From the NCBI GenBank assembly GCA_965197415.1, contig OZ240207.1:2858957-2922956 (forward strand): a DNA stretch of 64,000 nt. Direction: 5' to 3'. Made by a program: the position numbers and the translations under genes. Under the pieces are notes generated by a model. The model was not told the DNA's origin and made no database searches. It worked only from the letters and a program-made list of their open reading frames with translations. The stretch comes from Dehalococcoidia bacterium. Its GTDB lineage: Bacteria > Chloroflexota > Dehalococcoidia > Lucifugimonadales > JAGWBF01. Positions 21,522-38,124 of this stretch are shown piece by piece (the first letter of the stretch is position 1; each line of letters starts with the position of its first letter).

Positions 21522-21584
21522 ACAGGCTCCTCCTGACTTTCCCGCGCGATTGATGCCCAAATATGAGGCCGCTCTGGCCAGCGC

Positions 21585-21800
21585 CTAGGATTCCCTTGCA
21601 CCAGCTCTGTCGAACAAGGCTGCGGCTAGCATTGGTCCCAATAATTCAGCCGCGTGTTCAATCATCACTCCATTAGGTTTGCCCTCGTTGTCGAAGAACG
21701 CTGTGACGTGCTCGGCGATGTCTTCTCCGTCGGGCGTAGGCTTCCCATTACTAAGCCATAAAATGTCGGTTTCCTTGTCGTAATCGATTATCAATTTCAT
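21585..21800 (-). CDS. DUF2283-family small protein
   Basis: 'KLIIDYDKETDILWLSNG' and 'VTAFFDNEGKPNGVMIEHA' resemble DUF2283. Start is 5 nt after the upstream LLM stop. Confidence 0.6.
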   Translation of the reverse strand: MKLIIDYDKETDILWLSNGKPTPDGEDIAEHVTAFFDNEGKPNGVMIEHAAELLGPMLAAALFDRAGARES

Positions 21801-21805
21801 AGGGT

Positions 21806-22768: not shown

Positions 22769-22835
22769 TAAGCGCCTCCCGTTGCTCTCATTTGAACGCC
22801 TAATCTAAAGCTGCTCTGTGTACCTGCGGTGAGGG

Positions 22836-22864
22836 TTGACGTTACGACTATACCACAGTATCTT
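22836..22864 (+). promoter_or_regulatory. Promoter candidate TTGACG-17-TATCTT for the amidohydrolase gene
   Basis: Hexamers at 22836-22841 and 22859-22864, 41 nt upstream of the ATG. Confidence 0.4.
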
Positions 22865-22904
22865 GAGGGCGAAAGGCAATTTCAGTCGACGCGAGGGGTA
22901 AGGA

Positions 22905-24107
22905 ATGGACGATTTCAAGTTGATCGACGGCGACGCTCACATACTGGAGCATGACAACATATTCGACAACTATCTCGAAAAGAAGTACCGGCATCTCATT
23001 GACGAGGCCAGCGTCAGGTGGTGCAGGACTTCCAACCTGGGGGAAAGGCGGGCCGCCCCAATGGAATACGACACCGCCGACCCGCTTTGCTTTGAAATGA
23101 ACCTGAAGGTCATGGGCAGGCAGATGCCCTTCGGGGCCGAAGGCTTTGTCAATGCCGCCAAGGGTTTTGAGGGAAGGGACCTGGATGACCTGGACCGGGC
23201 CTACGGTAAGTGGGCCGACATGAACTTCCCGGCCAGCGCGTACCGTGAGGTCATGGACACCTGCGACATCAGCCACATGATTCTGTACCCCACCGCCGGG
23301 TTCTGGCTCACAGGCGTGCAGGAGATGGACGGGGTCACCGCCAACGCCCTGCGCCGCGCGTACAACCGCTGGCTTGGCGACTTCTGTGCGGAGATTGGTC
23401 CCGGAGGCTGCGGAGCCGCTTCCATCGACCTGCGGGACCCGGTGGCCGCCGCAGAGGAGGTCCGCCGCTGTGTGAAGGAGTACGACTTCAAGGCCGTGCA
23501 CATGAACCCTGCTCCCCACCCCGACATCCGCGTCTACCACGAAGAGTGCGACGTGTTGTGGGAGACATGCGCCGAGCTTGGGGTGCCCATAGGGCTGCAT
23601 CCCAGCACCAGCCATCCCTTCGACCAGGGGTTCCTTACTTACATCGACGGTCTGAGAAACTGCGCCTCCGCCGTCTCATTTGTCATGGGAAGCATGTTGG
23701 CCTGCACCGCCTTCATTATGGGCGGAGTCCTGGAGAGGCACCCCAAGCTTAAGCTCGTGTTCCTGGAGTCGGGCTGCGGATGGGCCGCATTCTGGCCTGA
23801 CCGCCTGGAAGCCGGCATTCAGGGCGGAACCCGCAAGCTCAAGATTGAAGGCCTCAACCACTCGCCGCAGGAATACTTCGAACGCCAGTGTTTCGTTGCC
23901 GCTGACCAGGACGACCCTGGTTTGGAAGACCTGATAGACGCCATCGGAGACCACGTCATCCTCGGCGCCACCGACTTCGGCCACCCCGAGGGGCGCATGT
24001 ACTACCGGGCCAAGCAGGACATGATGAACATGCCCAACATCTCCCTTGAGAGCAAGCGGAGAATCCTCAGGGACAACTCCCTCAGGGCATATCCCATCAA
24101 ACCCTAG
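22905..24107 (+). CDS. Amidohydrolase-2 family metal-dependent hydrolase/decarboxylase (ACMSD-like)
   Basis: 'IDGDAHILEH' metal-binding start, 'AVHMNPAP' and 'ATDFGHPEG' near the C-terminus. Confidence 0.82.
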   Translation: MDDFKLIDGDAHILEHDNIFDNYLEKKYRHLIDEASVRWCRTSNLGERRAAPMEYDTADPLCFEMNLKVMGRQMPFGAEGFVNAAKGFEGRDLDDLDRAYGKWADMNFPASAYREVMDTCDISHMILYPTAGFWLTGVQEMDGVTANALRRAYNRWLGDFCAEIGPGGCGAASIDLRDPVAAAEEVRRCVKEYDFKAVHMNPAPHPDIRVYHEECDVLWETCAELGVPIGLHPSTSHPFDQGFLTYIDGLRNCASAVSFVMGSMLACTAFIMGGVLERHPKLKLVFLESGCGWAAFWPDRLEAGIQGGTRKLKIEGLNHSPQEYFERQCFVAADQDDPGLEDLIDAIGDHVILGATDFGHPEGRMYYRAKQDMMNMPNISLESKRRILRDNSLRAYPIKP

Positions 24108-24119
24108 CCCCCTGTACTG

Positions 24120-25097
24120 GTGACAACAAGGAAGAATCACAGGCGGCCGCTTACAGCGGCCGCCTTGCATATATGGGTGGGAACACTGGTGCGCATCGTT
24201 ATAATCTGCCTCATTGTTGTGGGGTCCCTCGCTTGCCAGTTCACATCGGAGCCCACTCCTGAACCGACTGGAGTTCCGACTCCTACAGCAACTCCGACCC
24301 TGGCTCTGACTCAGTCCCCTGTTTTGCCGACCCAGCCGCCAGCCGTGTTGCTGGACATCGCTGTGGCTCCCGTTCCAGACGATCTGCCTCCCTATGACCG
24401 CGACGACTGGCGCCACTGGACCGATGAGGACAGGGACTGCCAGAACACCCGCCACGAGGTCCTTATCGAGGAAAGCCGCACTGACGTTGTGTACAAGACC
24501 GGCGAGCAGTGCAAAGTGAAGGCAGGAGAGTGGTACGGGGCGTACACCGGCGTGGTGGTCACAGACCCGGCCAAGTTGGACATCGACCACTTCGTCCCGC
24601 TGGCAAATGCTCACAAGTCGGGCGGCTGGTCCTGGTCATCCGAGCGTAAGCGGAGCTATGCCAACAGTCTTGACGACCCCGGGCATTTGATAGCCGTTAC
24701 GTCCGGAGCCAACCGGTCAAAGGGAGCCAAAGGCCCCGAAGAGTGGCGCCCTTCCAACGAGGCATACTCTTGCCAATACGCTCTTGATTGGATCAAGGTC
24801 AAGCAGACCTGGGAACTGACCGCGACTCCTGCTGAGACAAGTGCGCTGCAGGAGTTGTTGGCAACCTGTGATAGCCCCACGGAATTGGCTCCCTCGACGG
24901 TGGAACCCGCTGCGGTGCCTACCGGTCCCAAGCCTGCTGCGCCAGGACAAGGGGCCGTCTTTTCATCATGCGACGAGGCTGACGATGCCGGAGTGCAACG
25001 GATTCAAGGGTCTGTAGGGTCGGGCAAAGGATTCCCCAAGTCAGTGGTCCCGAGCGCGCGTGACGGCGACGCTGACGGGGTAGTCTGCGAGCATTGA
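24120..25097 (+). CDS. Membrane-anchored extracellular nuclease: DUF1524/HNH-type (GmrSD C-terminal-like) domain plus C-terminal excalibur Ca-binding domain
   Basis: TM helix, a Thr/Pro linker, 'LDIDHFVPLANAH' and 'AVTSGANRSKG' His-Me motifs, and C-terminal 'CDEADDAG...RDGDADGVVCE'. The true start is probably GTG 24177, after the hairpin. Confidence 0.72.
   Translation: MTTRKNHRRPLTAAALHIWVGTLVRIVIICLIVVGSLACQFTSEPTPEPTGVPTPTATPTLALTQSPVLPTQPPAVLLDIAVAPVPDDLPPYDRDDWRHWTDEDRDCQNTRHEVLIEESRTDVVYKTGEQCKVKAGEWYGAYTGVVVTDPAKLDIDHFVPLANAHKSGGWSWSSERKRSYANSLDDPGHLIAVTSGANRSKGAKGPEEWRPSNEAYSCQYALDWIKVKQTWELTATPAETSALQELLATCDSPTELAPSTVEPAAVPTGPKPAAPGQGAVFSSCDEADDAGVQRIQGSVGSGKGFPKSVVPSARDGDADGVVCEH
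24141..24165 (+). terminator. Perfect 11-bp GC hairpin after the amidohydrolase gene
   Basis: AGGCGGCCGCT-TAC-AGCGGCCGCCT. There is no clear U-tract. Confidence 0.35.
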
Positions 25098-25143
25098 GAG
25101 CCAGACGTCCCTTCTTCTACGAGGCGATAGGATAGTCTCCGTC

Positions 25144-25163
25144 ATTCCGGCCTTCGCCGGAAT
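25144..25163. repeat. Short hairpin ATTCCGGC-CTTC-GCCGGAAT
   Basis: 8-bp perfect stem. It sits next to a copy of the GC-rich unit in a convergent intergenic region. Confidence 0.4.
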
Positions 25164-25190
25164 CCAGGGTCTACAGTAAAGCTGGGGCAG

Positions 25191-25225
25191 CCCTCACCCC
25201 AACACTCTCCCAGAGGGAGAGGGGG
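25191..25225 (-). repeat. Single copy (reverse orientation) of the GC-rich hairpin unit
   Basis: CCCTCACCCCAACACTCTCCCAGAGGGAGAGGGGG is the reverse complement of the CCCTCTCCC-N3-GGGAGAG..GGGGTGAGGG pattern. Confidence 0.6.
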
Positions 25226-25250
25226 AGCTTGTGCCTAGTCGGGCTTTGGC

Positions 25251-26474
25251 CTATGACCAGGAGACCGGCAGCGACTTCAGGGAGCGAAAGCTGTTCGTGG
25301 GATGGTACTCCAACTCCTCCGACTCCAGGCGCATATCAGGGAACCTCTCGGCCAGAGCCATGAACGCCTCCTGACCCTCCAGGCGGGCCAATGTGGCTCC
25401 AAGGCAATGGTGGATTCCTGAACCGAAAGCCACGTGCCTGTTGGGGTGGCGGGTGATGTCGAAGCGGTCCGGCTGGTCGAATATGTCGGGGTCCCGGTTG
25501 GCAGAAGCGATGTACCACCGCATCCGGTCGTGTTTGCCCACCGTCCGTTCTCCCAGCTCAACCTCTTCGCTGGCGATGCGCCCTATGGACTTGACCGGCG
25601 GGTCATAGCGGAGACATTCCTCCGTGGCTCTTACGGTCATGCCGGCCGGGTCTGACCTGAGCAGCTCCCACTGGTCGGGGTGCCGCATGAACGACAGGGC
25701 GCCGTTGCAAATCAGGTTGATGGTCGTCTCATGTCCGGCCATCAGCAGCAGTAAGGAGTTGGCCAGCGCTTCTTCTCTGCTGTAGGCGCCCGTCTTGACC
25801 CCTCCGGCCAGGATGGACATCAGGTCGTCCTTGGGGGAGTCCACCCTCTCTTCCATCAGAGGCTCCACGTACCCGATAAGCCCCTTGATCCCTTCAGCCA
25901 GGGGTTTCATCCTGCTGCTCTCGCCCCGTCCGATGAATGTCAGCTTCTCGGCCAGATCGCGTATGAAGAGCCTGTCCTCAGTCGGGAGCCCCAGCATCTG
26001 GGCAATCACCAGCACGGGCAGAGGGGTTGCGAAGTCCCGCATCATGTCCATGCGGCCTTCTTCCTCCACCTCGTCGAGCAGGTACTTGATGGCCGAGCGC
26101 ACCAGAGGACGCCACCTCTCCGTCTCCTTGGGTGTGAAGTAGTGGTGAACCACCCGCCGCATGTCGGTGTGAGTGGGACGGTCCCGCAACGCGAACCAGT
26201 CGGAGAAGAAGTCGGTCACGTAGTGGTACAGGCCCATGTCCTCTTCCTGTATGGGTGGATAGGGCGGACGTGGGTCCAGCTTGTGCTGGACTGAGGAGAA
26301 TAGTTCATGGTGGCGGGCAATCCACACCAGGTGGTCGTAGCGGGTGATAATCCAGATGTCGTACTTCTCGTTCCAGTGGATGGGATCCTCATCCCGGAGC
26401 CGCGCGAAATAGGGATAAGGGTCCGTCATCACTTCCGGGGAGAATATGTCGTCATCGATGGTCTGTATTGCCAT
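25251..26474 (-). CDS. Cytochrome P450
   Basis: Heme loop 'FGSGIHHCLGATLA', 'ETT' I-helix 'LLLMAGHETT' and the ExxR 'ECLR' motif. ATG 26474 follows AAGGAG. Confidence 0.92.
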   Translation of the reverse strand: MAIQTIDDDIFSPEVMTDPYPYFARLRDEDPIHWNEKYDIWIITRYDHLVWIARHHELFSSVQHKLDPRPPYPPIQEEDMGLYHYVTDFFSDWFALRDRPTHTDMRRVVHHYFTPKETERWRPLVRSAIKYLLDEVEEEGRMDMMRDFATPLPVLVIAQMLGLPTEDRLFIRDLAEKLTFIGRGESSRMKPLAEGIKGLIGYVEPLMEERVDSPKDDLMSILAGGVKTGAYSREEALANSLLLLMAGHETTINLICNGALSFMRHPDQWELLRSDPAGMTVRATEECLRYDPPVKSIGRIASEEVELGERTVGKHDRMRWYIASANRDPDIFDQPDRFDITRHPNRHVAFGSGIHHCLGATLARLEGQEAFMALAERFPDMRLESEELEYHPTNSFRSLKSLPVSWS

Positions 26475-26558
26475 GCGTCTCCTTGCCATGATTCGCTTCC
26501 GGCCAAGGATGATTGCTCAACCTATTATGCGCCGACATTCTTGTCAAGGACGTATGGA

Positions 26559-26852
26559 GCGTTTCGGTTTGACACCCATCACGCGCCCAAGTATTCTCAG
26601 CTTAACGCTGTCCGGACGGTGCCCGGCGCCCAATATGTCGAAGGCGGGGTTTCATGGGTCGTCTCGACTGTAAAACGGCGATAATATCGGGTGGAGCCAG
26701 AGGTCAGGAAGCTGAAGAGGCCCGTCTCTTCGCGTCCGAGGGCGCCAATGCGTTAATCGGCGACATCCGGGACGAACTTGGTGCACAGGTGGAGGAGGAA
26801 ATCCGCGAGCTTGGCGGCGCCGCAGACTATGTGCACCTTGACGTGACTCAGG
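26559..26852. repeat. Copy A of a diverged ~294-bp duplication (promoter + 5' end of SDR gene)
   Basis: Hand alignment to 31980-32273 gives about 42 mismatches in 294 positions and no indels. Confidence 0.85.
26569..26597 (+). promoter_or_regulatory. Promoter candidate TTGACA-17-TATTCT (copy A)
   Basis: Hexamers at 26569-26574 and 26592-26597. Both hexamers and the spacing are conserved in copy B. Confidence 0.55.
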
Positions 26853-26998
26853 GCTGGAGACGGTTCCCACGCTCCCGAAAGCCAAGGGCTAAGGGCCACC
26901 TACGTACAGGCGCCGTTACAATAGGAGGTATTGATGTCCCTGTCCCCTCGAGAAACGGGAGAATTGCCACAAGCTCTTGCGGGAGTGCGTATTGTTGA
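26654..26998 (+). pseudogene. Truncated SDR gene fragment (first ~66 codons homologous to 32075..32833, then unrelated sequence)
   Basis: 'MGRLDCKTAIISGGARGQEAEEARLFASEGA...AADYVHLDVTQ' parallels the intact SDR. After codon ~66 the similarity stops, and the ORF tail overlaps the next gene's start. Confidence 0.7.
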
Positions 26999-29618
26999 TT
27001 TCACTTGGGTGAGGGCAGGCCCATGGGCCACCCGCTGGCTGGGAGCTTTAGGCGCCGAGGTGATCAAGGTCGAGTGGCCGGACAGCGAGAGGGGCAGGGG
27101 CGAAGGAATAGGCACCCCCCCGGGAGTGGAGACCAGCCTGAACACATCGGGGAACTTCAACGACACCAACTGTAACAAGTTGGGTGTAACTCTGAACCTA
27201 CGCAGCCCAAAGGGCCTCGACCTGATAAAGCGTCTCATCTCCATCTCGGACGTGGTCATCGAGAACTTCAGCGCCAGGGCATTGGGGAGTTGGGGATTGG
27301 GTTACGATGAGATGCTTACGCTGAAACCCGACATCGTCTATGTATCCCAGGCAGGGTTTGGCCATACTGGACGTCATCGCCACTACACCACGTTCGGCCC
27401 TATCGCACAGGCCTTTTCGGGGCTGACCTACCAGTCTGGGCTGCCCGGAAAGCCTCCTGCAGGATGGGGCTGGTCCTACCTGGACGACACCGGCGGCATG
27501 TATATGGCCATGGCCACCATGACTGCCCTGTACCACCGCGACATGACCGGCCAGGGGCAGCACGTGGACCTTTCTCAGATGATCGCTGGGATAACCCTGA
27601 ACGGACCCGCGCTGCTGGACGCCACTGTGAACGGCAGACCATCTCGCCGCGAGGGGTATCCCCCGGGGAACCGCTCTGTTTGGCCGGGGATCGCCTTTGC
27701 GAACAACTACCGCGGCCGCACCGCCGCTCCCCACAACGCCTACCGCACCAAGGGGGACGGCTACAACGACTGGTGTGCCATCGCCTGTTTTTCCGACGAG
27801 GAATGGCAAAACCTGGTCCGTGCGATGGGCAGTCCTGCCTGGGCCACTGATGGCCGATTCACCAGCCTCGAAAGTCGACTCCAGCGCCAGGAGGAACTGG
27901 ACCGGCACATTCAGGAATGGACCCTGACGCTGGAGAAGTACGAGTTGATGGAGCGCTGCCAGGCAGCCGGGGTGGGCGCTATGCCTGTCCAGAGCGTCGA
28001 AGACCGGGTGGAGCACGATCCCCAGCTTCGCCACAGGGAGATGTACACGGAGCTGGACCATCCGGCGCTGGGACCTCGCAAGTTCCAGAACGCACCCTTC
28101 AAGCTCTCCGAGACCCCAGCGTTCCACTATCTGGCGAGCCCGTTGATCGGCCAGCACAACAGGGAGGTCTTCGAGGGTCTCCTGGAGCTGAGCCATGAAG
28201 AGTTGCTGGAAGGATACGAGGACGGCGCCTTTTGGCCCAAGACCAGGGAGCGCTACCCCTATATTGAGGAGATGCTGCAGGGAGGCCCGCTTCCCGCTGG
28301 AGAAGGGCGCAGGCTGTCTCGCCAAAATAGGGGATCAAGAGCGCCGGAGGGAACCGCGTCGGAGACTTCTGGGCACAACGCAAGCGGCCCTCTGTCGGGC
28401 CTCAGGGTACTGGAGCTGGCTGACGAGAAGGGAGAGTTCTGCGGCAAGCTGATGGCGGACCTGGGGGCTGACGTTATCAAAATCGAGCCTCCCGGCGGAG
28501 GCACCAGCCGGACCCTGGGACCTTTCCTCGATGACGTTCCTCACAGAGAGCAAAGCATCTCCTTCTGGCACTACAACACCTCCAAGCGAGGCATCACCCT
28601 CAATCTGGAAACATCGGACGGGAGAAGCCTCTTCCGACGCCTCGCCTCCAACGCAGACGTTATCCTGGAGACTTCGAGACCGGGGCGCCTGCCATCCCTT
28701 GGACTGGGATATCAGGATCTGAAGGAACTGAACCCCCGGTTGATCTTTTGCTCCCTGACTCCCTTCGGCCAGACGGGGCCATGGCGGGACTACGTCACCA
28801 GCGACCTGCTCCACCTGGCTGTCGGAGGCCAGATGGGGTGCTGCGGTTACGACGAGGAGGACCTGCCGGGCGCCCCTCCGATAGCTGGAGGTGGCGGGCA
28901 GGCCTGGCACATAGGATGCCACTATGCCAACATGGCCATCGTGGCAGCTCTGATGCATCGCAACGAATCGGGGCGAGGGCAGTACATTGATGCCTCCATT
29001 CATGACGCCTGCGCCCTCACCACCGAGTTCCACGTAGCCAACTACATATACACCGGCGCGTTCCCCCTCCGGCAGACAGGACGTCACGCCTCTGCCACGC
29101 CCCGTCCCCAGTCTCAGTTCCTCTGTCAGGATGGCAGATATATGCACGCCTCCGTCGGCCAGCTTGGCCCTCGGCAAATAGGCGCGCTGGCTGAGTGGAT
29201 GGACACCTATGGCCTGGCTGGAGATCTGCAAGACCCCAGCTACCAGGATGCCAAGGTAGTCCGGGAGAAGGTCTCCCACATCGGTGACCTCGTGGCGAGG
29301 TTTGCCGCCAACCTCACCGCAGAGGAGTTGGCCTACGGGGGCCAGGAGAGGGGTTTCGGTTGGGGATTGGTCCGGACTCCCGAAGACCTGCTAGAGGACG
29401 GCCACCTGGAGGACCGGGGCTTCTGGGTCGAGGTGGAGCATCCGGAGCTGGGGCGCAGCTTCAAGTATCCCGGGCCTGCAGGCATATACAACGGCTCTCC
29501 CTGGAGGATCCGCCGCCGGGCGCCACTGATCGGAGAAGACAACCAAGAGGTCTACTGCGGAGAGCTGGGGCTTCAGCCGGTGGAGCTGGCGCTCCTCGCG
29601 GAGTCCAAGGTCGTTTAG
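26934..29618 (+). CDS. Tandem fusion of two family-III CoA-transferase modules (about 894 aa)
   Basis: Two N-terminal signatures: 'LAGVRIVDFTWVRAGPWATRWLGALGAEVIKVE' and 'LSGLRVLELADEKGEFCGKLMADLGADVIKIE'. They are joined by a low-complexity linker. SD AGGAGG lies 5 nt before ATG 26934. Confidence 0.88.
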   Translation: MSLSPRETGELPQALAGVRIVDFTWVRAGPWATRWLGALGAEVIKVEWPDSERGRGEGIGTPPGVETSLNTSGNFNDTNCNKLGVTLNLRSPKGLDLIKRLISISDVVIENFSARALGSWGLGYDEMLTLKPDIVYVSQAGFGHTGRHRHYTTFGPIAQAFSGLTYQSGLPGKPPAGWGWSYLDDTGGMYMAMATMTALYHRDMTGQGQHVDLSQMIAGITLNGPALLDATVNGRPSRREGYPPGNRSVWPGIAFANNYRGRTAAPHNAYRTKGDGYNDWCAIACFSDEEWQNLVRAMGSPAWATDGRFTSLESRLQRQEELDRHIQEWTLTLEKYELMERCQAAGVGAMPVQSVEDRVEHDPQLRHREMYTELDHPALGPRKFQNAPFKLSETPAFHYLASPLIGQHNREVFEGLLELSHEELLEGYEDGAFWPKTRERYPYIEEMLQGGPLPAGEGRRLSRQNRGSRAPEGTASETSGHNASGPLSGLRVLELADEKGEFCGKLMADLGADVIKIEPPGGGTSRTLGPFLDDVPHREQSISFWHYNTSKRGITLNLETSDGRSLFRRLASNADVILETSRPGRLPSLGLGYQDLKELNPRLIFCSLTPFGQTGPWRDYVTSDLLHLAVGGQMGCCGYDEEDLPGAPPIAGGGGQAWHIGCHYANMAIVAALMHRNESGRGQYIDASIHDACALTTEFHVANYIYTGAFPLRQTGRHASATPRPQSQFLCQDGRYMHASVGQLGPRQIGALAEWMDTYGLAGDLQDPSYQDAKVVREKVSHIGDLVARFAANLTAEELAYGGQERGFGWGLVRTPEDLLEDGHLEDRGFWVEVEHPELGRSFKYPGPAGIYNGSPWRIRRRAPLIGEDNQEVYCGELGLQPVELALLAESKVV

Positions 29619-29622
29619 ACTT

Positions 29623-29826
29623 CTATTGGTTGCCGTTCCAGAGGTTGTCCAAGATACCCACTGGAGACAGTGAGAGCTGCTTCAATTTGACACCCACGGC
29701 CCTGTATATGGCGTTGGCCACATCAGCCGTGGGAGGCGCCAGCGTCACGTCTCCCATTCCTCGGGCTCCGAAGGGATGTCCGGGGTTCGCTGCCTCTACG
29801 GTCCCTAGCCAGGGGTGGCGCTCCAC
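29623..29826 (-). pseudogene. C-terminal remnant (~58 codons) of a molybdopterin XDH/aldehyde-oxidase large-subunit gene
   Basis: 'NPGHPFGARGMGDVTLAPPTADVANAIYRAVGV' parallels the C-terminus of 33657..36011 ('NPGHPFGVRGVGEVSLVPPMAAVANAIHDAIGV'). Its upstream part is replaced by the 3' end of the thiolase gene. Confidence 0.65.
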
Positions 29827-31139
29827 ACGGTGAAGTCGCCGTCCAAGGGCATGGGACCGCCGGAGATGGCGACCTCCGGCTTTACCCCCGTGACCTGTCG
29901 CGCACCCGCTCGTCCCTGCAACTGCTGAATGCAGTCCGTGTGCATCCAGAAACGGCTGCGGCCGCTCCCGATGTTGCCGCCGCTGGGGGAAACGGGGTTC
30001 GGCCCTTCGATGCTGATGTCCGTCTGGTAGAAGTCCAACGCCTCTCCAAACTTGATGCCACGGTAGCCCAGGCCTTCAATGTGGAACTGGTGGAACAGGG
30101 AGAAGCCGTCATACATGTTCTCGAAGGAGAGATCGGCTGCGGTAATCCCGGCGCCCTCATAGATCTTCCGGGCCGATCTGGCGGTTTCGGCTTCGACCTC
30201 GTCCAGTGTTGGAGTGAGGCTCCTGGGCTTGATCCGGCTCGACGCATGGTTCAGGATGTAGACGGGCTTCTGCTTCATGTCCTTGGCCCGTTCAGCGGTT
30301 GTGAAGAGGTAGGCGGCGCTCGCCATGACCGGTATGTCGTTATCGAAGAGGTTAGCCGGCTTGGCTATCCACCGGGCGGCCAGATAGTCCTCCTCCGTCA
30401 ATTGTTCAGGCCGATGCTGGGCCCAATAGCCTTCCGGGAACAACAGTCCGTTCCTTCTTGAATTCACCATAAAGGGAGCCATCATGTCGTGGGTCTTGCC
30501 ATACTTTCGGCAGTACTCGGCAAACTGCAGGGCGGTGCCGAAGGACGCCGGGGTACCCCAGAGACGGCTAACCCCGACAGTCCCGGGTACGTCGTCCCCA
30601 GCGTTGGCCCCTCCCTGGTAGTACCGGCCTTCCATGTTGTGCCAGCCCTTGAGCACCAGGCAGGTCTGCGCGAGACCAGCGCCTACAGCCTGGGCGCCTA
30701 GGACAACGGCTTGGGACATACAACCGTAGGGCGGCACCCGACAGTACATGGTGAATTTGACGTTCACCAACTCCGGCATGTTCTTCAACAGCCACTCGGC
30801 GCTCAGCTTGGCGATGCCGTCCAAGGGGTCGCTGGTGGTCTCAAAAGCGTTGATCACTTCCGTGGGTAAGGGTTGGCCTTCCGGCCAGTGAGCCCCGGTA
30901 GCGGTCCCAGGGTCAAGGATCAAACCGTCGACCTGGTCCGGCGAGACGCCTGCGTCCTCTATAGCTCTCCTGAGGGCCAGGATGCTGTTTGCGCCTACGC
31001 TGGTTTCGGGTTTCCAGTCCCAGCGCCGGGCAGTGGGAGAGTGCCCAACACCGACGGCCGCCACCTTCCCTCGGTGTTCCCATAACCCCGTACCCTCTTC
31101 TGTCCGGTACATCGAAATTGGAGCATGTTGAGTGGTCAT
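29805..31139 (-). CDS. Thiolase-fold protein (SCP-x type), DUF35-associated
   Basis: 'KVAAVGVGHS', a candidate nucleophile 'YGCMSQAV' and C-terminal 'SPSGGNIGSG'. It lies directly downstream of a DUF35 gene. Confidence 0.85.
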   Translation of the reverse strand: MTTQHAPISMYRTEEGTGLWEHRGKVAAVGVGHSPTARRWDWKPETSVGANSILALRRAIEDAGVSPDQVDGLILDPGTATGAHWPEGQPLPTEVINAFETTSDPLDGIAKLSAEWLLKNMPELVNVKFTMYCRVPPYGCMSQAVVLGAQAVGAGLAQTCLVLKGWHNMEGRYYQGGANAGDDVPGTVGVSRLWGTPASFGTALQFAEYCRKYGKTHDMMAPFMVNSRRNGLLFPEGYWAQHRPEQLTEEDYLAARWIAKPANLFDNDIPVMASAAYLFTTAERAKDMKQKPVYILNHASSRIKPRSLTPTLDEVEAETARSARKIYEGAGITAADLSFENMYDGFSLFHQFHIEGLGYRGIKFGEALDFYQTDISIEGPNPVSPSGGNIGSGRSRFWMHTDCIQQLQGRAGARQVTGVKPEVAISGGPMPLDGDFTVWSATPG

Positions 31140-31184
31140 TGGTGATTCCTTTCTGAGAGCCTTAGTCCACAAGGATGTGAGTGT

Positions 31185-31595
31185 CTAGCTAACTACCCGC
31201 CACTCGGGGACCTTTTGGCCGTTGGCTGTGGCCTCGAACAGGACCTCCACACTGGCCCCCAACGGGACCTCGTCCACCGGAGTTCCGGGGAGGTGAGAAT
31301 ACATCTGGATGCTCGGGTCGTCGTCCAGCATAATTACCGCGACGTTGAAGGGTTGGTCGTCCTGAAGCAGTCTGATGGGGCAGTCGTAGACCACTCCGTA
31401 GTTGTATATCTTGCCGCGGCCGCTCATCTGCTTCCACTCCAGATTGTCCCCTGAGCCGCACTGGTCGCACGCCGGGACCGGGGGGTGCTGAAGCCTGTCG
31501 CAGGCTTTACAGTTCTGGATCACCAACCGCCCCTCGTTGGCGGCGTCCCAGAAGGGTTTGGTCAGCTCATCGGGCGCCACACCCTGCTTTACCAT
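31185..31595 (-). CDS. DUF35 OB-fold / rubredoxin-like zinc-ribbon protein
   Basis: 'CKACDRLQHPPVPACDQCGS' zinc ribbon followed by an OB-fold-like region. This is the typical partner of SCP-x thiolases. Confidence 0.85.
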   Translation of the reverse strand: MVKQGVAPDELTKPFWDAANEGRLVIQNCKACDRLQHPPVPACDQCGSGDNLEWKQMSGRGKIYNYGVVYDCPIRLLQDDQPFNVAVIMLDDDPSIQMYSHLPGTPVDEVPLGASVEVLFEATANGQKVPEWRVVS

Positions 31596-31979
31596 ATCTC
31601 ATCTCTCCTATTGTTAGTTTCCAGCGACTCGACAACGACGAGCTTTACCAGGTCAACAATACAGTCCGTCTTAACCGAGTCCTAGCTTACACGATTCCTC
31701 TGGCGCTCGAAACGCCACAGCAATCGACGGAACGAATCACGGGGAACTCGCCCGGCGACTTGGTTTGCCATGAGCTTTTAATATACTACATCCTGTTTCC
31801 AGCGAGGTAGAGCGTCATCGATCTACTAGGCAGGCGCTCTGGCTCGCCACGAATTAGCGCCTAACCCAAGATACATGGCATCTCCATGGGCGGTACAGTC
31901 TCGTTCCTTCGGCACACGATGCCGGCGGGCCGTTCGGTGCACTAGAGAACCGGCGCCCGATCCTCAGCAGGTTCCTACG

Positions 31980-32273
31980 GCGTTGCGGTTTGACACCCAT
32001 CCCATGCCCAAGTATTCTCTGCTTAACGGTGTGCGGGCGGCGCCCGGTGCGCAATATGTCCAAGGCGGGGTTTCATGGGACGTCTCGACGGCAAAACGGC
32101 CATCATATCCGGTGGAGCCAGGGGGCAGGGAGCTGAAGAGGCCCGCCTTTTCGCGTCCGAGGGCGCCAGTGTAGTCATCGGAGACATCAGAGATGAACTG
32201 GGCGTCCAAGTGGAGGCGGAAATCCGAGAGCTTGGCGGGGCCGCAGACTACGTGCACCTTGACGTGACCCAGG
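31980..32273. repeat. Copy B of the diverged ~294-bp duplication
   Basis: See copy A (26559-26852). Confidence 0.85.
31990..32018 (+). promoter_or_regulatory. Promoter candidate TTGACA-17-TATTCT (copy B) for the intact SDR gene
   Basis: Hexamers at 31990-31995 and 32013-32018. Confidence 0.55.
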
Positions 32274-32833
32274 AGGACGATTGGCGCAGGGCTGTGGAGT
32301 TTGCCGAGTCAAAGTACGGTGGGCTGAACGTTCTGGTAAACAATGCTGGCATCGTGACCTGGTCCGCCATCGATGAAATGCCCGTTGAGGAATGGGACCT
32401 GGTTATGGCCGTCAACATGCGCGGCGTGTTTCTGGGCACCAAGCACTCCATACCGGCCATGATAAGAGCTGGAGGAGGCTCCATAATCAACATCTCCTCT
32501 GGGGCGGGCATTGCCCCGGCCTCTCCTTCGTCCTCCGCCTACGCCGCCAGCAAGGGCGGGGTGCGGCTTTTCACCAAGGCAACGGCTATCCAACACGCCA
32601 AGGACAACATTCGCTGCAACTCCGTCCACCCCGGCCCCATAGACACACCCATGGTACAAGAGACCCGCATGGCCAGGCCCGATGAGATGGCGGCCCGCAT
32701 GGACCGGGTGCCCTTGGGTCGCATGGGCGAGTCCTCGGAGATAGCTTATGGAGTCCTTTTCCTTGCCTCCGACGAGTCGTCCTACATGACCGGCTCTGAA
32801 GTCGTCATCGACGGCGGCCGGACAGCCATGTAG
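32075..32833 (+). CDS. Short-chain dehydrogenase/reductase (SDR)
   Basis: 'TAIISGGARGQG' cofactor motif, 'NNAG' and the catalytic 'YAASKGG'. Confidence 0.92.
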   Translation: MGRLDGKTAIISGGARGQGAEEARLFASEGASVVIGDIRDELGVQVEAEIRELGGAADYVHLDVTQEDDWRRAVEFAESKYGGLNVLVNNAGIVTWSAIDEMPVEEWDLVMAVNMRGVFLGTKHSIPAMIRAGGGSIINISSGAGIAPASPSSSAYAASKGGVRLFTKATAIQHAKDNIRCNSVHPGPIDTPMVQETRMARPDEMAARMDRVPLGRMGESSEIAYGVLFLASDESSYMTGSEVVIDGGRTAM

Positions 32834-32877
32834 GTCGAGTTAGCGCTAGAGTCAACTCCAGAAACAGGAGGACACCA

Positions 32878-33555
32878 ATGACCAGACGAAAGGGATCAGT
32901 CATATCGGTGGTTTTCGCCGACGTTGACCCGGAAATGGACGATGAATGGAACCGGTGGTACAACGAGGAGCACATACCCGACCTGCTTAAGATGCCCGGA
33001 TACCTGGACGCCGCCCGGTATGAAGCTGTAAGAGGCTCACCCAGGTATCTGGCCATCTATGAACATGAGGATTTCGGCGTGTTCTCCACGCAGGAGCGAA
33101 ACGCCTACCGCGACAATCCTCCGGAGTGGACCCGGAGCATCCAGGAGCGAGGGGGAGCGCGTCTCACCATCCGCAACGTCTACACCCGAATCTACCCTGA
33201 AACAGAAGAGCCGGAAGCACTGGGCCGACCCATGCCTGCGGCGGTCCAGGTGGGGCGTATGGAAGTTCCCGCGGAAATCGAGGAAAAGTACAACCACTAC
33301 TACGACAACATACGTCTGCCCCAGAACACCGCCCTTCCCGGCTGCCTGTACGCCAGGCGGTTCCATTGCATAGAGGGGGGTGGGCCCAAGTATCTGACCC
33401 TCTACGAGTTCGAGCACGAGAACGTCTCGCAGACCATAGCATGGAACGAGTGGCGTAAGACTGACACCATGAACGACTACATTGGGGGCGACTACGACCA
33501 CGCTCCCGGCTCGCCGGGCGTGTACCGCCGTATCTTCCCTCAGCGATCTTTTTAA
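32878..33555 (+). CDS. Hypothetical protein with two tandem ferredoxin-like (EthD/DUF4286-like) half-domains
   Basis: Internal repeat: 'DDEWNRWYNEEHIPDLLKMPGYLDAARYE...YLAIYEHED' vs 'EEKYNHYYDNIRLPQNTALPGCLYARRFH...YLTLYEFEH'. SD AGGAGG. The family assignment is tentative. Confidence 0.5.
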   Translation: MTRRKGSVISVVFADVDPEMDDEWNRWYNEEHIPDLLKMPGYLDAARYEAVRGSPRYLAIYEHEDFGVFSTQERNAYRDNPPEWTRSIQERGGARLTIRNVYTRIYPETEEPEALGRPMPAAVQVGRMEVPAEIEEKYNHYYDNIRLPQNTALPGCLYARRFHCIEGGGPKYLTLYEFEHENVSQTIAWNEWRKTDTMNDYIGGDYDHAPGSPGVYRRIFPQRSF

Positions 33556-33629
33556 CCCTCACCCCAACCCTCTCCCAGCGGGAGAGGGGGTATGTTCCTT
33601 CCCCCAACGGGAAACGCTAGGATGGGGGG
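33556..33629. repeat. Two adjacent copies (reverse then forward, degenerate) of the GC-rich hairpin unit
   Basis: CCCTCACCCCAACCCTCTCCCAGCGGGAGAGGGGG (33556-33590) and CCTTCCCCCAACGGGAAACGCTAGGATGGGGGG (33597-33629). They start right after the stop codon at 33553-33555. Confidence 0.6.
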
Positions 33630-33656
33630 CGGACGAATAATGAAAGGGGGGCGTTG

Positions 33657-36011
33657 ATGACCACGGGACAGATAATAAAAAGCCCTGAAGTTCCCGATTA
33701 CAACGTAGTGGGCAGCAGGCCTGTGCGACACGACGGACCGGACAAGGTGACGGGCCGGGCGCGTTATGCCGCCGACACGTCCTTTGCCGACATTCCAGGC
33801 CCCGCGCTTCTGCATGCGAGGGCGCTTCGCAGTCCTCACGCCCACGCGCGCATCAAGTCTATAGACGCCTCCAAAGCCCTGGCCCTTCCAGGGGTGAAGG
33901 CAGTGGTCACGGCTGCCGACATGCCGGAGGTCTCGGCGAAGCTGTCGGAAATAGAGGAAGGAGCCGCCGTCAACTACGGCTTCTACAGCCGCAACGTCAT
34001 GGCTAGGGAGAAGGCGTTGTACAAAGGCCATACCGTGGCGGCGGTAGCGGCAACCAGCGCCCACGTCGCAGAAGAGGCGCTGGCCTTGATCGAGGTGGAC
34101 TACGAGGTCTTGGAGCCGGTGTTCACCGCCGAGGAAGCCATGAAGGACGATGCACCCATACTTCATGAGCGGCTGGTGACAATGGCCGACGCAGCCTTCA
34201 GAGGCGGCGGCTACGCCGATGACGACGTGGAACGGCCCTCCAACGTAGCCAACCATTTCGAGTTCAAGCTGGGCGAGCCTGAGCAGGGGTTTGCTGAGGC
34301 CGACGTGGTTGTGGAACGGGAGTACCACACCCGGCCAGTGCACCAGGGATACATCGAACCACACTCCGCCACCGCGTACTGGGGGACCGATGGGTTGGTG
34401 ACGATATGGACCAGTTCCCAGGGCCACTTCGCCCTGAGAGACCATACCTCCAGCATGCTTGAGTTGCCGGTGTCCCAGGTGAAAATCATCCCGATGGAAA
34501 TCGGAGGCGGATTCGGAGGCAAGGGGCAGGGCGGCTGCTACCTGGAGCCGGTGGCTGCGGTCCTTTCCCGAAAGACGGGACACCCCGTGAAGTTGAGCAT
34601 GACCAGGACGGACGTGTTTCTGGGCACCGGCCCGACGTCGGCAGGCCATATCAAAATCAAGATTGGCGCCAGGAACGACGGCAAGATGGTTGCCGCTGAT
34701 GCACGTCTGGTCTTCGAGGCGGGCGCCTTCCCCGGGTCGCCAGTAGCGTCGGGAACGCGGACTATTTTCGGCCCTTACGACCTACAGAACGCCTACCTGG
34801 AAGCGATGGATGTGGTGGTGAACACTCAGAAGGTCGCCGCTTACCGGGCGCCCGGCTCTCCCATAGCCTCCTTTGCAGCTGAGACAGTCATCGACGAGCT
34901 TTGCGAAAAGCTCGGCATGGACCCCATCGAGATGCGCTTGCTCAACGCTTCCAAGGAGGGGACACGGCAGGTGGTCGGGCCGGTGTTCCAGCGCATCGGC
35001 AACGTGGAGGTCCTCCAAGCCGCCAGGGATCACGACCACAACAAGACGCCGGTTTCGCCGGACGGTCCCGACGGAAAGAAGCGTGGGCGCGGGGTAGCCA
35101 GCGGCGCATGGATGAACGGCACAGGGCCTGCCAGCGCTGTGGCCTCCGTGCACGCCGACGGCACCGTAAGCCTTCTTGAGGGCTCCCCCGACATCGGGGG
35201 CAGCAGGGCCGTTGCCGCCATGCACGTGGCCGAGGTCCTGGGCATCGGCGCCGAGGACGTTAAGCCGGCCATCGGCGACACCGCGGCGATAGGCTATAGC
35301 AGCGGGGCTGGCGGTTCCGGTGTGACCTTCAAGACCGGCACCGCCGTCTACGAGGCGGCCCAGGACGTTAAACGCCAGATGATTGCCCGGGCGGCAACGA
35401 TTTGGGACGCTGACCCTGAGGACATCGAGTACAGTGACCGGGGTTCGCTGTCCCACAAGTCCGACCCGGAACTGCGAATGACTTTCGCGGAGCTTGCGGC
35501 CAGGTTGAACGCCACTGGCGGCCCCATTGTTGGAAAGGCTGCCGTCAATCCGTCGCGGGTGGGGAACGCTTTCGCCGTTCACATGGTGGACGTGGAGGTG
35601 GACCCGGAGACGGGAAAGGTGGATATACTGCGCTACACCACCTTCCAGGATGCAGGAACGGCCATACACCCCTCCTATGTAGAGGGGCAGATGCAGGGCG
35701 GAGCCGTCCAAGGCATCGGCTGGGCTCTCAATGAAGAGTATTACATGAGTGGCGACGGTCAGATGCTGAACTCCAGCTTCCTGGACTACAGGATGCCCAC
35801 TTCACTGGACCTGCCCATGATAGACACGGTGATAATCGAGGTGCCCAACCCTGGCCATCCCTTTGGCGTCAGGGGAGTGGGCGAAGTGTCGCTGGTGCCG
35901 CCTATGGCTGCCGTGGCCAACGCAATACACGACGCGATAGGCGTCAGAATGAACCGGCTTCCCATGAGCCCCGGGGCCATACTGGAAACCATGTGGGAAC
36001 AAGAGGGCTAA
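33657..36011 (+). CDS. Xanthine dehydrogenase/aldehyde oxidase family molybdopterin-binding large subunit
   Basis: 'VTGRARYAADT', 'HARIKSID', 'GGGFGGKG' and 'AYRAPG' blocks, plus the C-terminal 'NPGHPFGVRGVGE'. No FeS or FAD subunit genes are adjacent. Confidence 0.9.
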   Translation: MTTGQIIKSPEVPDYNVVGSRPVRHDGPDKVTGRARYAADTSFADIPGPALLHARALRSPHAHARIKSIDASKALALPGVKAVVTAADMPEVSAKLSEIEEGAAVNYGFYSRNVMAREKALYKGHTVAAVAATSAHVAEEALALIEVDYEVLEPVFTAEEAMKDDAPILHERLVTMADAAFRGGGYADDDVERPSNVANHFEFKLGEPEQGFAEADVVVEREYHTRPVHQGYIEPHSATAYWGTDGLVTIWTSSQGHFALRDHTSSMLELPVSQVKIIPMEIGGGFGGKGQGGCYLEPVAAVLSRKTGHPVKLSMTRTDVFLGTGPTSAGHIKIKIGARNDGKMVAADARLVFEAGAFPGSPVASGTRTIFGPYDLQNAYLEAMDVVVNTQKVAAYRAPGSPIASFAAETVIDELCEKLGMDPIEMRLLNASKEGTRQVVGPVFQRIGNVEVLQAARDHDHNKTPVSPDGPDGKKRGRGVASGAWMNGTGPASAVASVHADGTVSLLEGSPDIGGSRAVAAMHVAEVLGIGAEDVKPAIGDTAAIGYSSGAGGSGVTFKTGTAVYEAAQDVKRQMIARAATIWDADPEDIEYSDRGSLSHKSDPELRMTFAELAARLNATGGPIVGKAAVNPSRVGNAFAVHMVDVEVDPETGKVDILRYTTFQDAGTAIHPSYVEGQMQGGAVQGIGWALNEEYYMSGDGQMLNSSFLDYRMPTSLDLPMIDTVIIEVPNPGHPFGVRGVGEVSLVPPMAAVANAIHDAIGVRMNRLPMSPGAILETMWEQEG

Positions 36012-36036
36012 AAGTAGAACAATCTCAGGAGGAGAC

Positions 36037-37835: not shown

Positions 37836-37875
37836 TATGATGTAGCGACCATATAGATCATGTAGGTTGCACCAC

Positions 37876-38124
37876 ATGACTACGTATAGCATAAGAGAGT
37901 TCAAGGCCAAAGTCAGCGAAATACTCAGAAACCTCAATGACGGCGAAGAGGTGATCATCACCCGACGCGGAAAGCCATGCGGGAAACTCATTCCCCTGCA
38001 ATCTGCCGCCGAGGGAAAGCCTTCGCTACGTGACCTGAGAGGGTCCATGACGCAACTTCCCGACGCGAACTACGAGGACTTTCTGGGCGCCAAGGCGCTA
38101 TGGGACTCGCAGCGGGCCGATTAA
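37876..38124 (+). CDS. Phd/YefM-family antitoxin, apparently orphan
   Basis: 'YSIREFKAKVSEILRNLNDGEEVIITRRGKPCGKLIPL' is typical of Phd/YefM N-termini. No toxin ORF lies in the 75 nt before the next gene. Confidence 0.7.
   Translation: MTTYSIREFKAKVSEILRNLNDGEEVIITRRGKPCGKLIPLQSAAEGKPSLRDLRGSMTQLPDANYEDFLGAKALWDSQRAD

Follow-up and report, generated by a model that had tools for sequence, protein, structure and literature searches.

The segment that precedes a CoA-transferase gene in the window (the whole stretch of 64,000 nucleotides that was analysed) is probably the remnant of a second copy of an SDR gene together with its own promoter, and not a stub made by the insertion of a cassette. 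This remnant (copy A) and the start of an intact SDR gene (copy B) are direct repeats on either side of a 5.1-kb module. The locus is a product of ordinary genome evolution, namely a gene remnant with a probably reused promoter in an often reshuffled region of a marine Chloroflexota genome. Its features are listed below; labels such as L013 denote relatives.

25251-26489, minus strand: cytochrome P450 gene (Pfam PF00067), divergent from copy A; one of several alternative left-hand modules.
26490-26558, no strand: IG_A, the left flank of copy A, not shared with copy B (alignment with relatives' flanks).
26559-26653, plus strand: non-coding part of copy A, with a putative sigma-70-type promoter (-35 TTGACA 26569-26574, 17-nt spacer, -10 TATTCT 26592-26597) and the former SDR 5' UTR.
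26654-26852, plus strand: copy A remnant, SDR codons 1-66, with G6C, G19E (within TGxxxGxG), V33A and V34L in translation.
26654-26998, plus strand: 114-codon ORF, in translation SDR codons 1-66 and an out-of-frame tail, overlapping the CoA-transferase start; an incidental deletion product.
26850-26855, plus strand: scar where an internal deletion between AGG microhomologies removed 194 nt (SDR codons 67-130) and shifted the frame, from alignment with copy A of L013, where the 194 nt are kept.
26853-26867, plus strand: second piece of copy A, SDR codons 131-135 (GCTGGAGACGGTTCC); 12 of 15 positions match copy B at 32468-32482, and the piece is contiguous with codons 1-130 in copy A of L013.
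26868-26933, plus strand: leader with Shine-Dalgarno AGGAGG at 26923-26928, conserved in relatives.
26934-29618, plus strand: two-domain family III (CaiB/BaiF-type) CoA-transferase gene, 894 aa, with Pfam PF02515 (CoA_transf_3) twice.
29623-29826, minus strand: remnant of a molybdopterin (XDH-family) dehydrogenase C-terminus; BLASTP matches it to the end of the XDH at 33654-36011 (62 aa, 53% identity).
29805-31139, minus strand: thiolase-like (SCP-x / lipid-transfer type) gene, Pfam PF22691.
31185-31595, minus strand: DUF35 / ChsH2-type zinc-ribbon and OB-fold gene, Pfam PF12172 and PF01796.
31596-31979, no strand: IG_B, the left flank of copy B, which belongs with the module; common to L001, L002, L003 and L013.
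31980-32273, plus strand: copy B, comprising promoter (31990-32018), 5' UTR and first 66 codons of the intact SDR.
32075-32833, plus strand: SDR-B, intact, 252 aa, with full-length Pfam matches; it heads an SDR-DUF4286-XDH-ADH row.

Direct comparison of 26559-26852 with 31980-32273 gave an ungapped alignment in which 42 of the 294 positions are mismatched (85.7% identity), the same number as had been counted by hand in the initial annotation. The edges of the repeat are sharp, and directly beyond either end the identity is at background level (3-8 matches per 20 nt). A repeat search found this pair to be the largest direct repeat within 20000-40000, and a 39-nt promoter pattern matched copies A and B only in the whole 64-kb window, with 0 matches expected by chance. 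The TTGACA-17-TATTCT motif is conserved in both copies as previously described (26569-26597 and 31990-32018), and a promoter scan of 25100-33700 (8.6 kb) gave these two sites as the only ones with 10 of 12 matches to sigma-70. Both promoters are putative in the sense that they rest on consensus match and conservation, the consensus being that of sigma-70, from which the host's own promoter use may differ.

The gene content between the copies also agrees with the earlier description: a CoA-transferase fusion on the plus strand, and an XDH C-terminal remnant, a thiolase and DUF35 on the minus strand. NCBIfam matches of the CoA-transferase are all below cut-offs, as are the lipid-transfer and thiolase subfamily matches of the thiolase-like gene. 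Homologues of the CoA-transferase with 94-62% identity are found in Dehalococcoidia/SAR202 assemblies, the closest named one being from a SAR202 cluster bacterium. Copy B does run into an intact SDR; SDR-B is 98-99% identical to proteins of related assemblies, and the SDR-DUF4286-XDH-ADH row is conserved in all relatives. The locus is dense in luciferase-like monooxygenase, SDR, CoA-transferase, P450 and XDH genes. Paralogue expansions of CaiB/BaiF-type CoA-transferases, short-chain dehydrogenases and flavin monooxygenases have been described for SAR202 Chloroflexota (Landry et al. 2017, PMC5395668; Saw et al. 2020, PMC6946804). The enzyme families and the kind of organism are the same here; however, those papers concern ancient, family-level deep paralogy, whereas the present locus has a small scar of recent date, and its modules are swapped between genomes of 83-97% identity.

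The extent of copy A was where the initial annotation had to be revised. It had proposed that the duplicated unit was the promoter with about 66 codons and that similarity ends after HLDVTQ. In the window, 66 SDR codons are indeed followed by out-of-frame sequence, but 26853-26867 is still SDR-derived. In the sister genome L013, whose SDR-B is identical to that of the window at 249 of 252 aa (DNA 92-93% identical), position A has the promoter and SDR codons 1-135 (141-aa ORF), and then the leader and the CoA-transferase gene as in the window. That the 66 codons break off after HLDVTQ is therefore due to a later 194-nt deletion in the window lineage only. No part of copy A in L013 is further from all the B copies than codons 67-130, with 57-67% identity at third positions, so that a later insertion of these codons, for example by gene conversion from B, is unlikely. 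The original repeat was about 500 nt long, of which 294 + 15 nt are now left in the window.

These observations bear directly on a model, akin to the rnk-citT promoter capture of the E. coli long-term evolution experiment, in which the cassette was inserted or duplicated in one event that also copied only the SDR promoter with about 66 codons. The promoter would thereby have come to stand before a CoA-transferase gene not previously served by it, the stub being neutral since. Sharp-edged direct repeats bracket the module, the promoter sits within the repeat, relatives without the module exist, and promoter capture has experimental precedent (PMC6614815). However, L013 has codons 1-135 at A, and the window keeps codons 131-135 past the 194-nt deletion, which makes the 66-codon edge secondary. 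The low A-B dN/dS with high synonymous divergence and the age of the A/B split (both below) also speak against it. We regard this model as very unlikely, and as already largely refuted by L013. Of the promoter-capture reading in the initial annotation, what stands includes that two promoter/SDR 5' copies bracket the CoA-transferase/thiolase/DUF35 module.

In more distant relatives (L002, L003 and L001), copy A has decayed in different ways. The junction of SDR sequence and leader (...CGGTTCC/CAC..., 26867/26868 in the window) is common to the window, L013, L002, L003 and L001, five independent assemblies. L002 has ACG in place of the ATG, an 8-nt insertion, and lacks codons ~30-125; L003 retains the promoter, codons ~33-45 and codons 134-135 only; and L001, otherwise without copy A, has about 14 nt of SDR origin beside the leader (codons 131-135), so that it derives from an ancestor with copy A. 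These deletions differ from that of the window and are larger. Identity of the leader to that of the window is 94% in L013, 83% in L003, 80% in L002 and 75% in L001, and no significant similarity of the 66-nt leader to the 3' part of the SDR was found. An assembly error, with relatives having an intact SDR at A, had been considered earlier as an explanation of the truncation; no relative examined has a full-length SDR there, and with the junction in five assemblies the truncation is not such an error. As no relative showed a full-length SDR at A, that a complete gene once stood there is something we infer from substitution patterns and do not observe.

The differences between copies A and B are mainly synonymous. 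In the window, 22 of the 30 coding mismatches fall at codon position 3 (dN/dS 0.07), and the comparison of its copy A with every B-type copy gave dN/dS values of 0.06-0.12. In the upstream 95 nt, A and B differ at 12 positions (87% identity), whereas third codon positions are only 67% identical. For the 133 codons compared between copy A of L013 and the B copies, there are about 44 synonymous and 18 replacement differences (Fisher's test, p = 9e-18), where a neutral A branch would predict about 70 replacements. The A-B synonymous divergence equals that between the most distant genomes sampled. Derived states are common to A copies across genomes, so the A/B split is old. The synonymous excess suggests that, over most of the time since it separated, A was part of a working gene. 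The strong synonymous bias rules out a fragment that was dead and drifting from the duplication onward, as a neutral stub would give a dN/dS of at least about 0.5. No database SDR closer to A than to B was found, including 30 members of the closest 90% cluster.

The same bias would also be seen if A had never been a complete gene at this place. A DNA circle or fragment made up of the module and some 500 nt of the SDR promoter and 5' end may have entered a module-free P450-IG_A-promoter-SDR genome by a single crossover; it could have been excised from a genome whose SDR row directly follows the module. Both repeats would then arise at once, and the A-B bias would be the divergence of donor and recipient alleles, since alleles of working genes would differ in this way. 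The order of flank, repeat, module, repeat and rest of the gene is the exact product of single-crossover integration, recipient-type genomes are common among close relatives (L010, L014-L016), and module exchange between these lineages is evident. On the other hand, a pristine donor-type genome was not found, L001 with the module and no copy A keeping its ~14 SDR nt; no integrase, transposase or terminal inverted repeats were found within the 5.1-kb module; and the age paradox described next applies equally. We consider such an integration unlikely, if less so than the copying of a promoter with 66 codons, and prefer the remnant of a second gene copy.

The paradox lies in the small number of replacements since the junction was formed. 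L002 and L003, which share the junction, show about 20-28% neutral divergence from the window (identity of 79% at third positions of the CoA-transferase, and of 72% plus gaps in the XDH remnant), but replacement changes in the A copies of the window and L013 are at only about 5% of replacement sites. This requires refreshment by recombination with functional alleles, or residual selection. The two A copies differ by 11 synonymous and 7 replacement changes, with a dN/dS of 0.18; the bias has p = 5e-4 with equal mutation rates and 0.02 if 35% of mutations are synonymous. It might be argued from this ratio, from the open ORFs (114 codons in the window, 141 in L013) and from the shortage of replacements relative to the age of the junction that the product of copy A is functional and under selection, as an N-terminal Rossmann half-protein or as a translated leader tuning CoA-transferase expression. 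However, the catalytic Ser/Tyr/Lys region is absent, and the nucleotide-binding motif has G19E in the window and G13V in L013. The window has the 194-nt frameshift, the start codon is lost in L002, and L003 has mostly lost the copy. Overall, the two A copies have diverged by 8%, as much as the XDH pseudogene next to them (10%), and the third-position excess is marginal after mutation bias. A functional product is hard to credit on this evidence.

That copy A no longer functions as an SDR, as first proposed, holds. Its Pfam adh_short match has 26.3 bits, under the 26.6 cut-off, and G6C, G19E, V33A and V34L hit positions that are invariant or nearly so among 120 homologues; these changes appear to be signs of recently lost constraint. 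The ORF tail does cross the AGGAGG and ATG of the CoA-transferase gene, as had been noted, and runs to 26998. The L013 ORF, by comparison, stops 50 nt upstream, and this overlap is unique to the window and a by-product of the frameshift, not a conserved feature.

The promoter has fared differently from the coding remnant. The pattern -35 TTGAC[A/G/T], 17-nt spacer, -10 TATTCT is present in 18 of 18 copies from 14 assemblies, and all four genomes with A copies retain the hexamers at A despite the decay of the coding part. Three unrelated upstream flanks (IG_A, IG_B and the P450 3' remnant of L007) all give way to the conserved block no more than about 15 nt from the -35. A scan of the plus strand from 26600 to the CoA-transferase ATG at 26934 gave no terminator-like site. 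The retention of putative promoter A fits continued use for the CoA-transferase gene, and supports, short of proof, that it now transcribes this gene. After its split from SDR-B, a second SDR copy would have remained a working gene over most of the time, and would then have been cut at codon 135 and joined to the short leader before the two-domain CoA-transferase gene. Lineage-specific deletions would have eroded the remnant, in the window by the frameshifting loss of codons 67-130. The transcript from promoter A would most likely start near 26604 and cross about 330 nt of dead SDR remnant and leader before it reaches the CoA-transferase gene; the thiolase-like and DUF35 genes are transcribed from the opposite strand.

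When the first gene of an operon decays, its remnant can leave the promoter to the downstream gene. Copy A resembles such operon-head pseudogenes in its truncated and frameshifted ORF, lineage-specific deletions, retained promoter, lost motif residues and, in a relative, lost start codon. The CoA-transferase gene may always have lain downstream of SDR-A, perhaps as the second gene of an ordinary operon, or the module may have come in by insertion. Promoter capture by duplication or by microhomology-mediated deletion has been documented experimentally (PMC6614815), as has the activation of transferred genes (PMC6614815, PMC11111574). As in the rnk-citT capture of the E. coli long-term evolution experiment (discussed in PMC6614815), a promoter and the 5' end of the original gene precede a different gene while a second promoter copy still serves the original one, and as in known captures the junctions are at microhomologies. 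Unlike these fresh, near-identical duplicates, copy A is old, diverged under purifying selection and once had at least 135 codons, and the CoA-transferase gene may have been active and regulated in the same way before.

Relatives lacking the cassette, which the initial annotation had suggested looking for, do exist: in L010, L014, L015 and L016 the P450 and IG_A are followed by a single repeat copy and an intact SDR. IG_A aligns with the flank before the single promoter copy in these genomes and in L004; in L002, L003 and L013 it aligns with the flank before copy A. In L004, also without the module, a methyltransferase and CAR replace the P450 body; L004 falls inside the module-carrying clade in trees of four flanking genes, and is 99-100% identical to L010 outside the swapped piece. 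The P450 is intact in L002, L003, L010 and L014. Only its first ~17 codons are left in L004 and L013, and only a 3' remnant in L007 and L011, which likewise lack the 5.1-kb module (in L007 the last ~48 codons of the P450); L001 has no P450. Genomes with either left module (P450 or CAR) occur both with and without the 5.1-kb module, so that each of the four combinations is represented and the region is a recombination hotspot. The direct repeats and the shared IG_A flank would offer homology for gain, loss and exchange of this module and the left modules, and recombination through the repeats may explain the pattern of presence and absence. The single copy of L004 and L010 is B-like from about 26564 onward, so that in a simple A x B pop-out the crossover would have to fall in the repeat's first ~20 nt.

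With its occurrence in some close relatives only and its alternative neighbouring modules, the 5.1-kb module resembles direct-repeat-flanked genomic islands. Unlike typical islands, it has no integrase, attachment site or tRNA gene, its repeats are gene-derived (promoter and coding sequence), and the crossover implied by module-less relatives lies at the very edge of the repeat. L001 and L013 have the XDH remnant, in L002 and L003 part of it is deleted, and L005 has none. IG_B has a variable insertion site near 31889-31920, with an extra ~77 nt in L001 and ~570 nt (NOV_C gene) in L013. In L013, an IS630-family transposase adjoins the module.

The two segments that the initial annotation had aligned without gaps, copy A (26559-26852) and copy B (31980-32273), differ at 42 of 294 positions (85.7% identity), which agrees with the hand count. 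Identity falls to background a few bases beyond both ends, and the pair is the largest direct repeat in the 20-40 kb of the window. The TTGACA-17 nt-TATTCT promoter described for both copies is found at 26569-26597 and 31990-32018. Both putative promoters are of the sigma-70 type, with -35 and -10 elements near the consensus and a spacing within 16-18 nt. They are the only sites in 25100-33700 that match sigma-70 at 10 of 12 positions, and a 39-nt promoter pattern matches only these two sites in the window (0 expected by chance). The genes reported between the copies are also present, so that all features described from the sequence alone could be located in the window.

Genes and gene remnants between copies A and B.
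26934-29618, + strand: CoA-transferase, two-domain family III, 894 aa
29623-29826, - strand: C-terminal remnant of XDH (molybdopterin dehydrogenase), last ~62 codons, 53% aa identity over 62 aa to the XDH at 33654-36011
Between the copies, - strand: thiolase-like gene
Between the copies, - strand: DUF35/ChsH2-type gene

In the CoA-transferase two complete family III domains are fused, an architecture that is widespread in Dehalococcoidia/SAR202 assemblies (at least 120 matches of ~830-1030 aa). Every NCBIfam match of the module genes was below cut-off, and the CoA-transferase received no equivalog-level assignment. The XDH remnant lies where the ends of the CoA-transferase and thiolase genes converge, with the intact XDH 4 kb downstream in the opposite orientation. 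Among related assemblies (denoted by L and a number), L001 and L013 carry the remnant, L002 and L003 carry it with a partial deletion, and L005 lacks it. The ORFs in 26559-32273 comprise only the CoA-transferase, thiolase-like and DUF35 genes and the remnants, with no transposase or integrase. No inverted repeats were found at the borders of the 5.1-kb module, which are formed by the 294-nt gene-derived direct repeat. Having neither transposase, integrase nor terminal inverted repeats, the module is not a mobile element.

The SDR gene at copy B (32075-32833, 252 aa) is intact, as had been proposed. Its translation contains the SGGARGQG, NNAG and SS...YAASK motifs of a classical SDR, and it matches Pfam adh_short_C2 with 211 bits over residues 15-249 and NCBIfam NF005559 with 234.9 bits (cut-off 215). 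Copy A is not a full-length SDR: only codons 1-66 and 131-135 are left, without the catalytic Ser and YxxxK. Its Pfam adh_short score of 26.3 bits is under the 26.6 cut-off, and in place of TGxxxGxG it reads SGGARGQE, where G19E replaces a Gly found in 119 of 120 homologues. No SDR N-terminus nearer to A than to B was found among 120 matches or among those members of the nearest 90% cluster that were listed. The tail of copy A does overlap the start of the CoA-transferase gene, since it runs out of frame to 26998 across AGGAGG (26923-26928) and the ATG at 26934; the resulting 114-codon ORF is window-specific and incidental. The claim that similarity is lost after HLDVTQ holds for the 66 SDR codons followed by an out-of-frame stretch. 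It does not hold for the 15 nt beyond, because 26853-26867 (GCTGGAGACGGTTCC) still represents SDR codons 131-135, with 12 of 15 positions matching 32468-32482. The true junction between SDR and leader (26868-26933, the segment before the CoA-transferase ATG) is thus 26867/26868, and not 26852.

Exact look-ups of the window CoA-transferase and SDR gave no record. Relatives were therefore reached through homologues, the closest of which are in Dehalococcoidia assemblies (closest named, SAR202 cluster bacterium), and 14 related assemblies yielded gene neighbourhoods. Four flanking genes gave trees with a consistent topology, (L007,((L002,L003),(L004,(L001,window)))). The close group of the window also includes L013 and L010/L014 at 89-93% DNA identity, and the SDR at copy B of L013 is identical to that of the window at 249 of 252 aa. 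At position A, upstream of the CoA-transferase gene, L013 has the same promoter and a 141-aa ORF with SDR codons 1-135, followed by the same leader and CoA-transferase. Alignment to this copy reveals a gap of 194 nt in the window (codons 67-130), with an AGG triplet on either side; as 194 is not a multiple of three, the deletion is frameshifting. The 26852/26853 edge was dropped as the original junction, given that L013 has SDR codons 67-135 at position A. The 26867/26868 junction is common to five genomes (the window, L013, L002, L003 and L001), in which the SDR part has decayed differently. Copy A of L002 has ACG in place of ATG, an 8-nt insertion and no codons ~30-125. That of L003 is reduced to the promoter, codons ~33-45 and codons 134-135. 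In L001, ~14 nt of SDR-derived bases are left next to an unrelated upstream ORF with no Pfam match. Copy A therefore has the marks of a pseudogene or gene remnant, namely a frameshifting deletion and independent decay at the same position in relatives. No full-length SDR was found at position A in the relatives examined. These alignments indicate that the SDR truncation is real and old, and that the 66-codon edge is a later, lineage-specific deletion in the window.

Several other accounts of position A were considered. An L001-type parent of the module side, joined by homology-facilitated illegitimate recombination, was dropped, as L001 keeps its ~14 SDR-derived nucleotides and L013 keeps codons 67-135. 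Reading the 120-aa upstream ORF of L001 as a glyoxalase/VOC remnant had no Pfam support and was dropped. A full-length SDR upstream of the L005 CoA-transferase was ruled out, the gene there being an unrelated membrane protein. In no relative was the CoA-transferase preceded by an upstream region native to this clade; L005, L006 and L008 were too distant to align. Similarity of the 66-nt leader to the SDR 3' part and downstream spacer was no better than that of shuffled sequence. The right end of the 194-nt deletion (26852/26853) and the join to unrelated sequence in L001 (~9912-9918) lie within ~2 nt of each other, at ..GCTGG..; this may be a coincidence or a local breakage hotspot.

While the SDR part decayed, the promoter was retained. 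In all 18 promoter copies compared (four at position A, 14 at B or single-copy) we found a -35 TTGAC(A/G/T), a 17-nt spacer and a -10 TATTCT. In L003, where SDR coding sequence is nearly all gone, the promoter is still present 178 nt upstream of the CoA-transferase ATG. Between A and B the 95 non-coding nucleotides are 87% identical as compared to 67% at third codon positions, a sign that the promoter and 5' UTR are under constraint. In addition, three unrelated upstream sequences (the intergenic flanks left of A and of B, referred to as IG_A and IG_B, and a P450 3' remnant in L007) meet the conserved block within ~15 nt of the -35, as would be expected if rearrangements removing the promoter were not tolerated. 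There is no terminator-like site on the + strand between promoter A and 26934, and no further promoter-like match in the leader. It is a reasonable inference that the putative promoter A transcribes the CoA-transferase gene via a ~330-nt leader. An Rfam scan of the leader and the whole window returned no element. A dispersed mobile promoter was rejected: the promoter pattern gave four matches in species-representative genomes, one per genome, and two promoter patterns gave no match in JGI metagenomes.

The presence of the module varies among relatives. L010, L014, L015 and L016 have GmrSD_C, P450(-), IG_A, one repeat copy and an intact SDR, and lack the module. L004 matches L010 at 99-100% identity, but where L010 has the P450 body L004 carries a methyltransferase and a carboxylate-reductase-like (CAR) gene. 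L013 has the same CAR module (96.6% identical) with an IS630-type transposase, copy A and the CoA-transferase/thiolase/DUF35 module. The left module and the CoA-transferase module thus occur in all four combinations among close relatives. L007 and L011 have only the last ~48 P450 codons, adjoining the promoter; P450 stubs are 5' in L004 and L013 and 3' in L007.

Alternative modules between the amidohydrolase gene and the SDR promoter (window 24120-26558; L001, L003, L004, L007, L010, L013).
Module 1: GmrSD_C and P450
Module 2: GmrSD_C, methyltransferase and carboxylate-reductase-like gene, with or without IS630 transposase
Module 3: extra 884-aa DUF4379/DUF559 gene (L003)
Module 4: 120-aa ORF (L001)
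Module 5: almost nothing (L007)

The region from the amidohydrolase gene to the SDR row (SDR-DUF4286-XDH-ADH genes) is a recombination hotspot, with the A/B repeat and IG_A as plausible crossover substrates. L004 and L010 fall inside the module-carrying clade. Since their single copy is B-like from ~26564 on, loss of the module by an A x B crossover would need to have occurred in the first ~20 nt of the repeat. A further variable point is seen in IG_B (window 31889-31920), 60-90 nt upstream of promoter B, where L001 has ~77 nt extra and L013 ~570 nt extra with a NOV_C-domain gene.

We also compared substitutions by codon position. Coding mismatches between A and B are mostly at third codon positions (22 of 30), and the codon differences are 18 synonymous and 7 replacement. 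Against every B-type copy, dN/dS of the window copy A is 0.06-0.12 with dS of 0.6-0.8, a dS as large as that between the most distant B copies. Over 133 codons, copy A of L013 has ~44 synonymous and 18 replacement differences from B copies; a neutral A branch would predict ~70 replacements (Poisson p ~ 4e-14). This synonymous-biased divergence indicates that copy A belonged to a functional gene during the greater part of its independent evolution. Changes at positions (near-)invariant in the 120 homologues, G19E in TGxxxGxG, G6C, V33A and V34L in the window and G13V and W70R among those in L013, fit a later loss of constraint on A.

The more recent divergence is less simple. L002 and L003, which have the junction in common with the window, are at ~20-28% neutral divergence from it (CoA-transferase third positions 79% identical, XDH remnant 72% with gaps). 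Yet no more than ~5% of replacement sites are changed in the A copies of the window and L013. Between these two copies there are 11 synonymous to 7 replacement differences (dN/dS 0.18), a bias with p = 5e-4 under equal rates and 0.02 if 35% of mutations are synonymous; their overall divergence of 8% is on par with the 10% of the neighbouring XDH pseudogene. The sole surprising element of the locus is how few replacements the A remnant has accumulated. Residual selection on the SDR fragment would explain this rate. We consider it less likely than overwriting of A at times from its 5' side, via recombination with working alleles of module-less genomes that share IG_A. Such overwriting, which we prefer, would fit the lower dS in codons 1-66 (0.39-0.74) than in codons 67-133 (0.84-1.44), and exchanges of this kind clearly occur. 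It seems very improbable to us that selection maintains the A fragment in the window/L013 lineage, whether in the form of a small Rossmann-like protein or of a translated leader controlling CoA-transferase expression. The same holds for a less exotic version, a population-level switch formed by the repeat pair, with repeated loss and recovery of the module and repeated overwriting of A by working alleles. If true, a selected A fragment would explain ~3x fewer replacements than expected of a pseudogene as old as the junction common with L002/L003.

SAR202-type Chloroflexota have very large families of paralogous catabolic enzymes, and to our knowledge the wiring and rewiring of their individual modules is poorly documented. 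At the present locus, at least five stages form a natural series along which an SDR copy decays and its promoter is kept before a CoA-transferase gene. Among close relatives, this region is seen both with the 5.1-kb module and lacking it, and with alternative neighbouring modules. Together these make it a concrete case, open to testing, of how an uncultured marine lineage may reuse a promoter and shuffle modules by recombination. The original interpretation as promoter capture is partly supported: the junction exists and the promoter is kept before the CoA-transferase gene, which it may or may not have served earlier. The copied segment is not a fragment made by the event. In promoter capture by duplication, as reportedly in rnk-citT, a fragment created by the event itself is the defining feature; it is missing here, where the remnant had at least 135 codons and evolved under purifying selection. 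The layout does resemble promoter capture by duplication or microhomology-mediated deletion, of which experimental examples have been discussed (PMC6614815). A gene remnant with retained promoter, inside a variable region of a SAR202-type genome, is the better description of the locus. It is well documented, but as an outcome of gene decay and recombination it is ordinary, and it reveals no new mechanism or new kind of element. The SAR202 group is known for paralogous CaiB/BaiF CoA-transferases and SDRs, and Landry et al. noted that some of its CoA-transferases resemble DddD (PMC5395668).

Two minor observations concern the surroundings. In L002, XDH and the zinc-type alcohol dehydrogenase are called as a single 1135-aa ORF (16642-20049), either a gene fusion or a lost stop codon; the window keeps them as separate genes (33654-36011 and 36037-37155). 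We also observed ~35-nt GC-rich palindromic REP-like intergenic repeats (CCCTCACCCCAACCCTCTCCC..GGGAGAGGGGG) in both orientations.

Copies of the REP-like repeat.
Window, both orientations: 20443-20477, 25191-25225, 33556-33590, 37173-37207
Relatives: L002 ~14950-15010, L003 ~14895-14950, L009

L002, L003 and L009 each have a copy of it inserted upstream of the intact SDR gene, between the -10 and the Shine-Dalgarno, so this part of the 5' UTR tolerates a ~19-nt-longer replacement.
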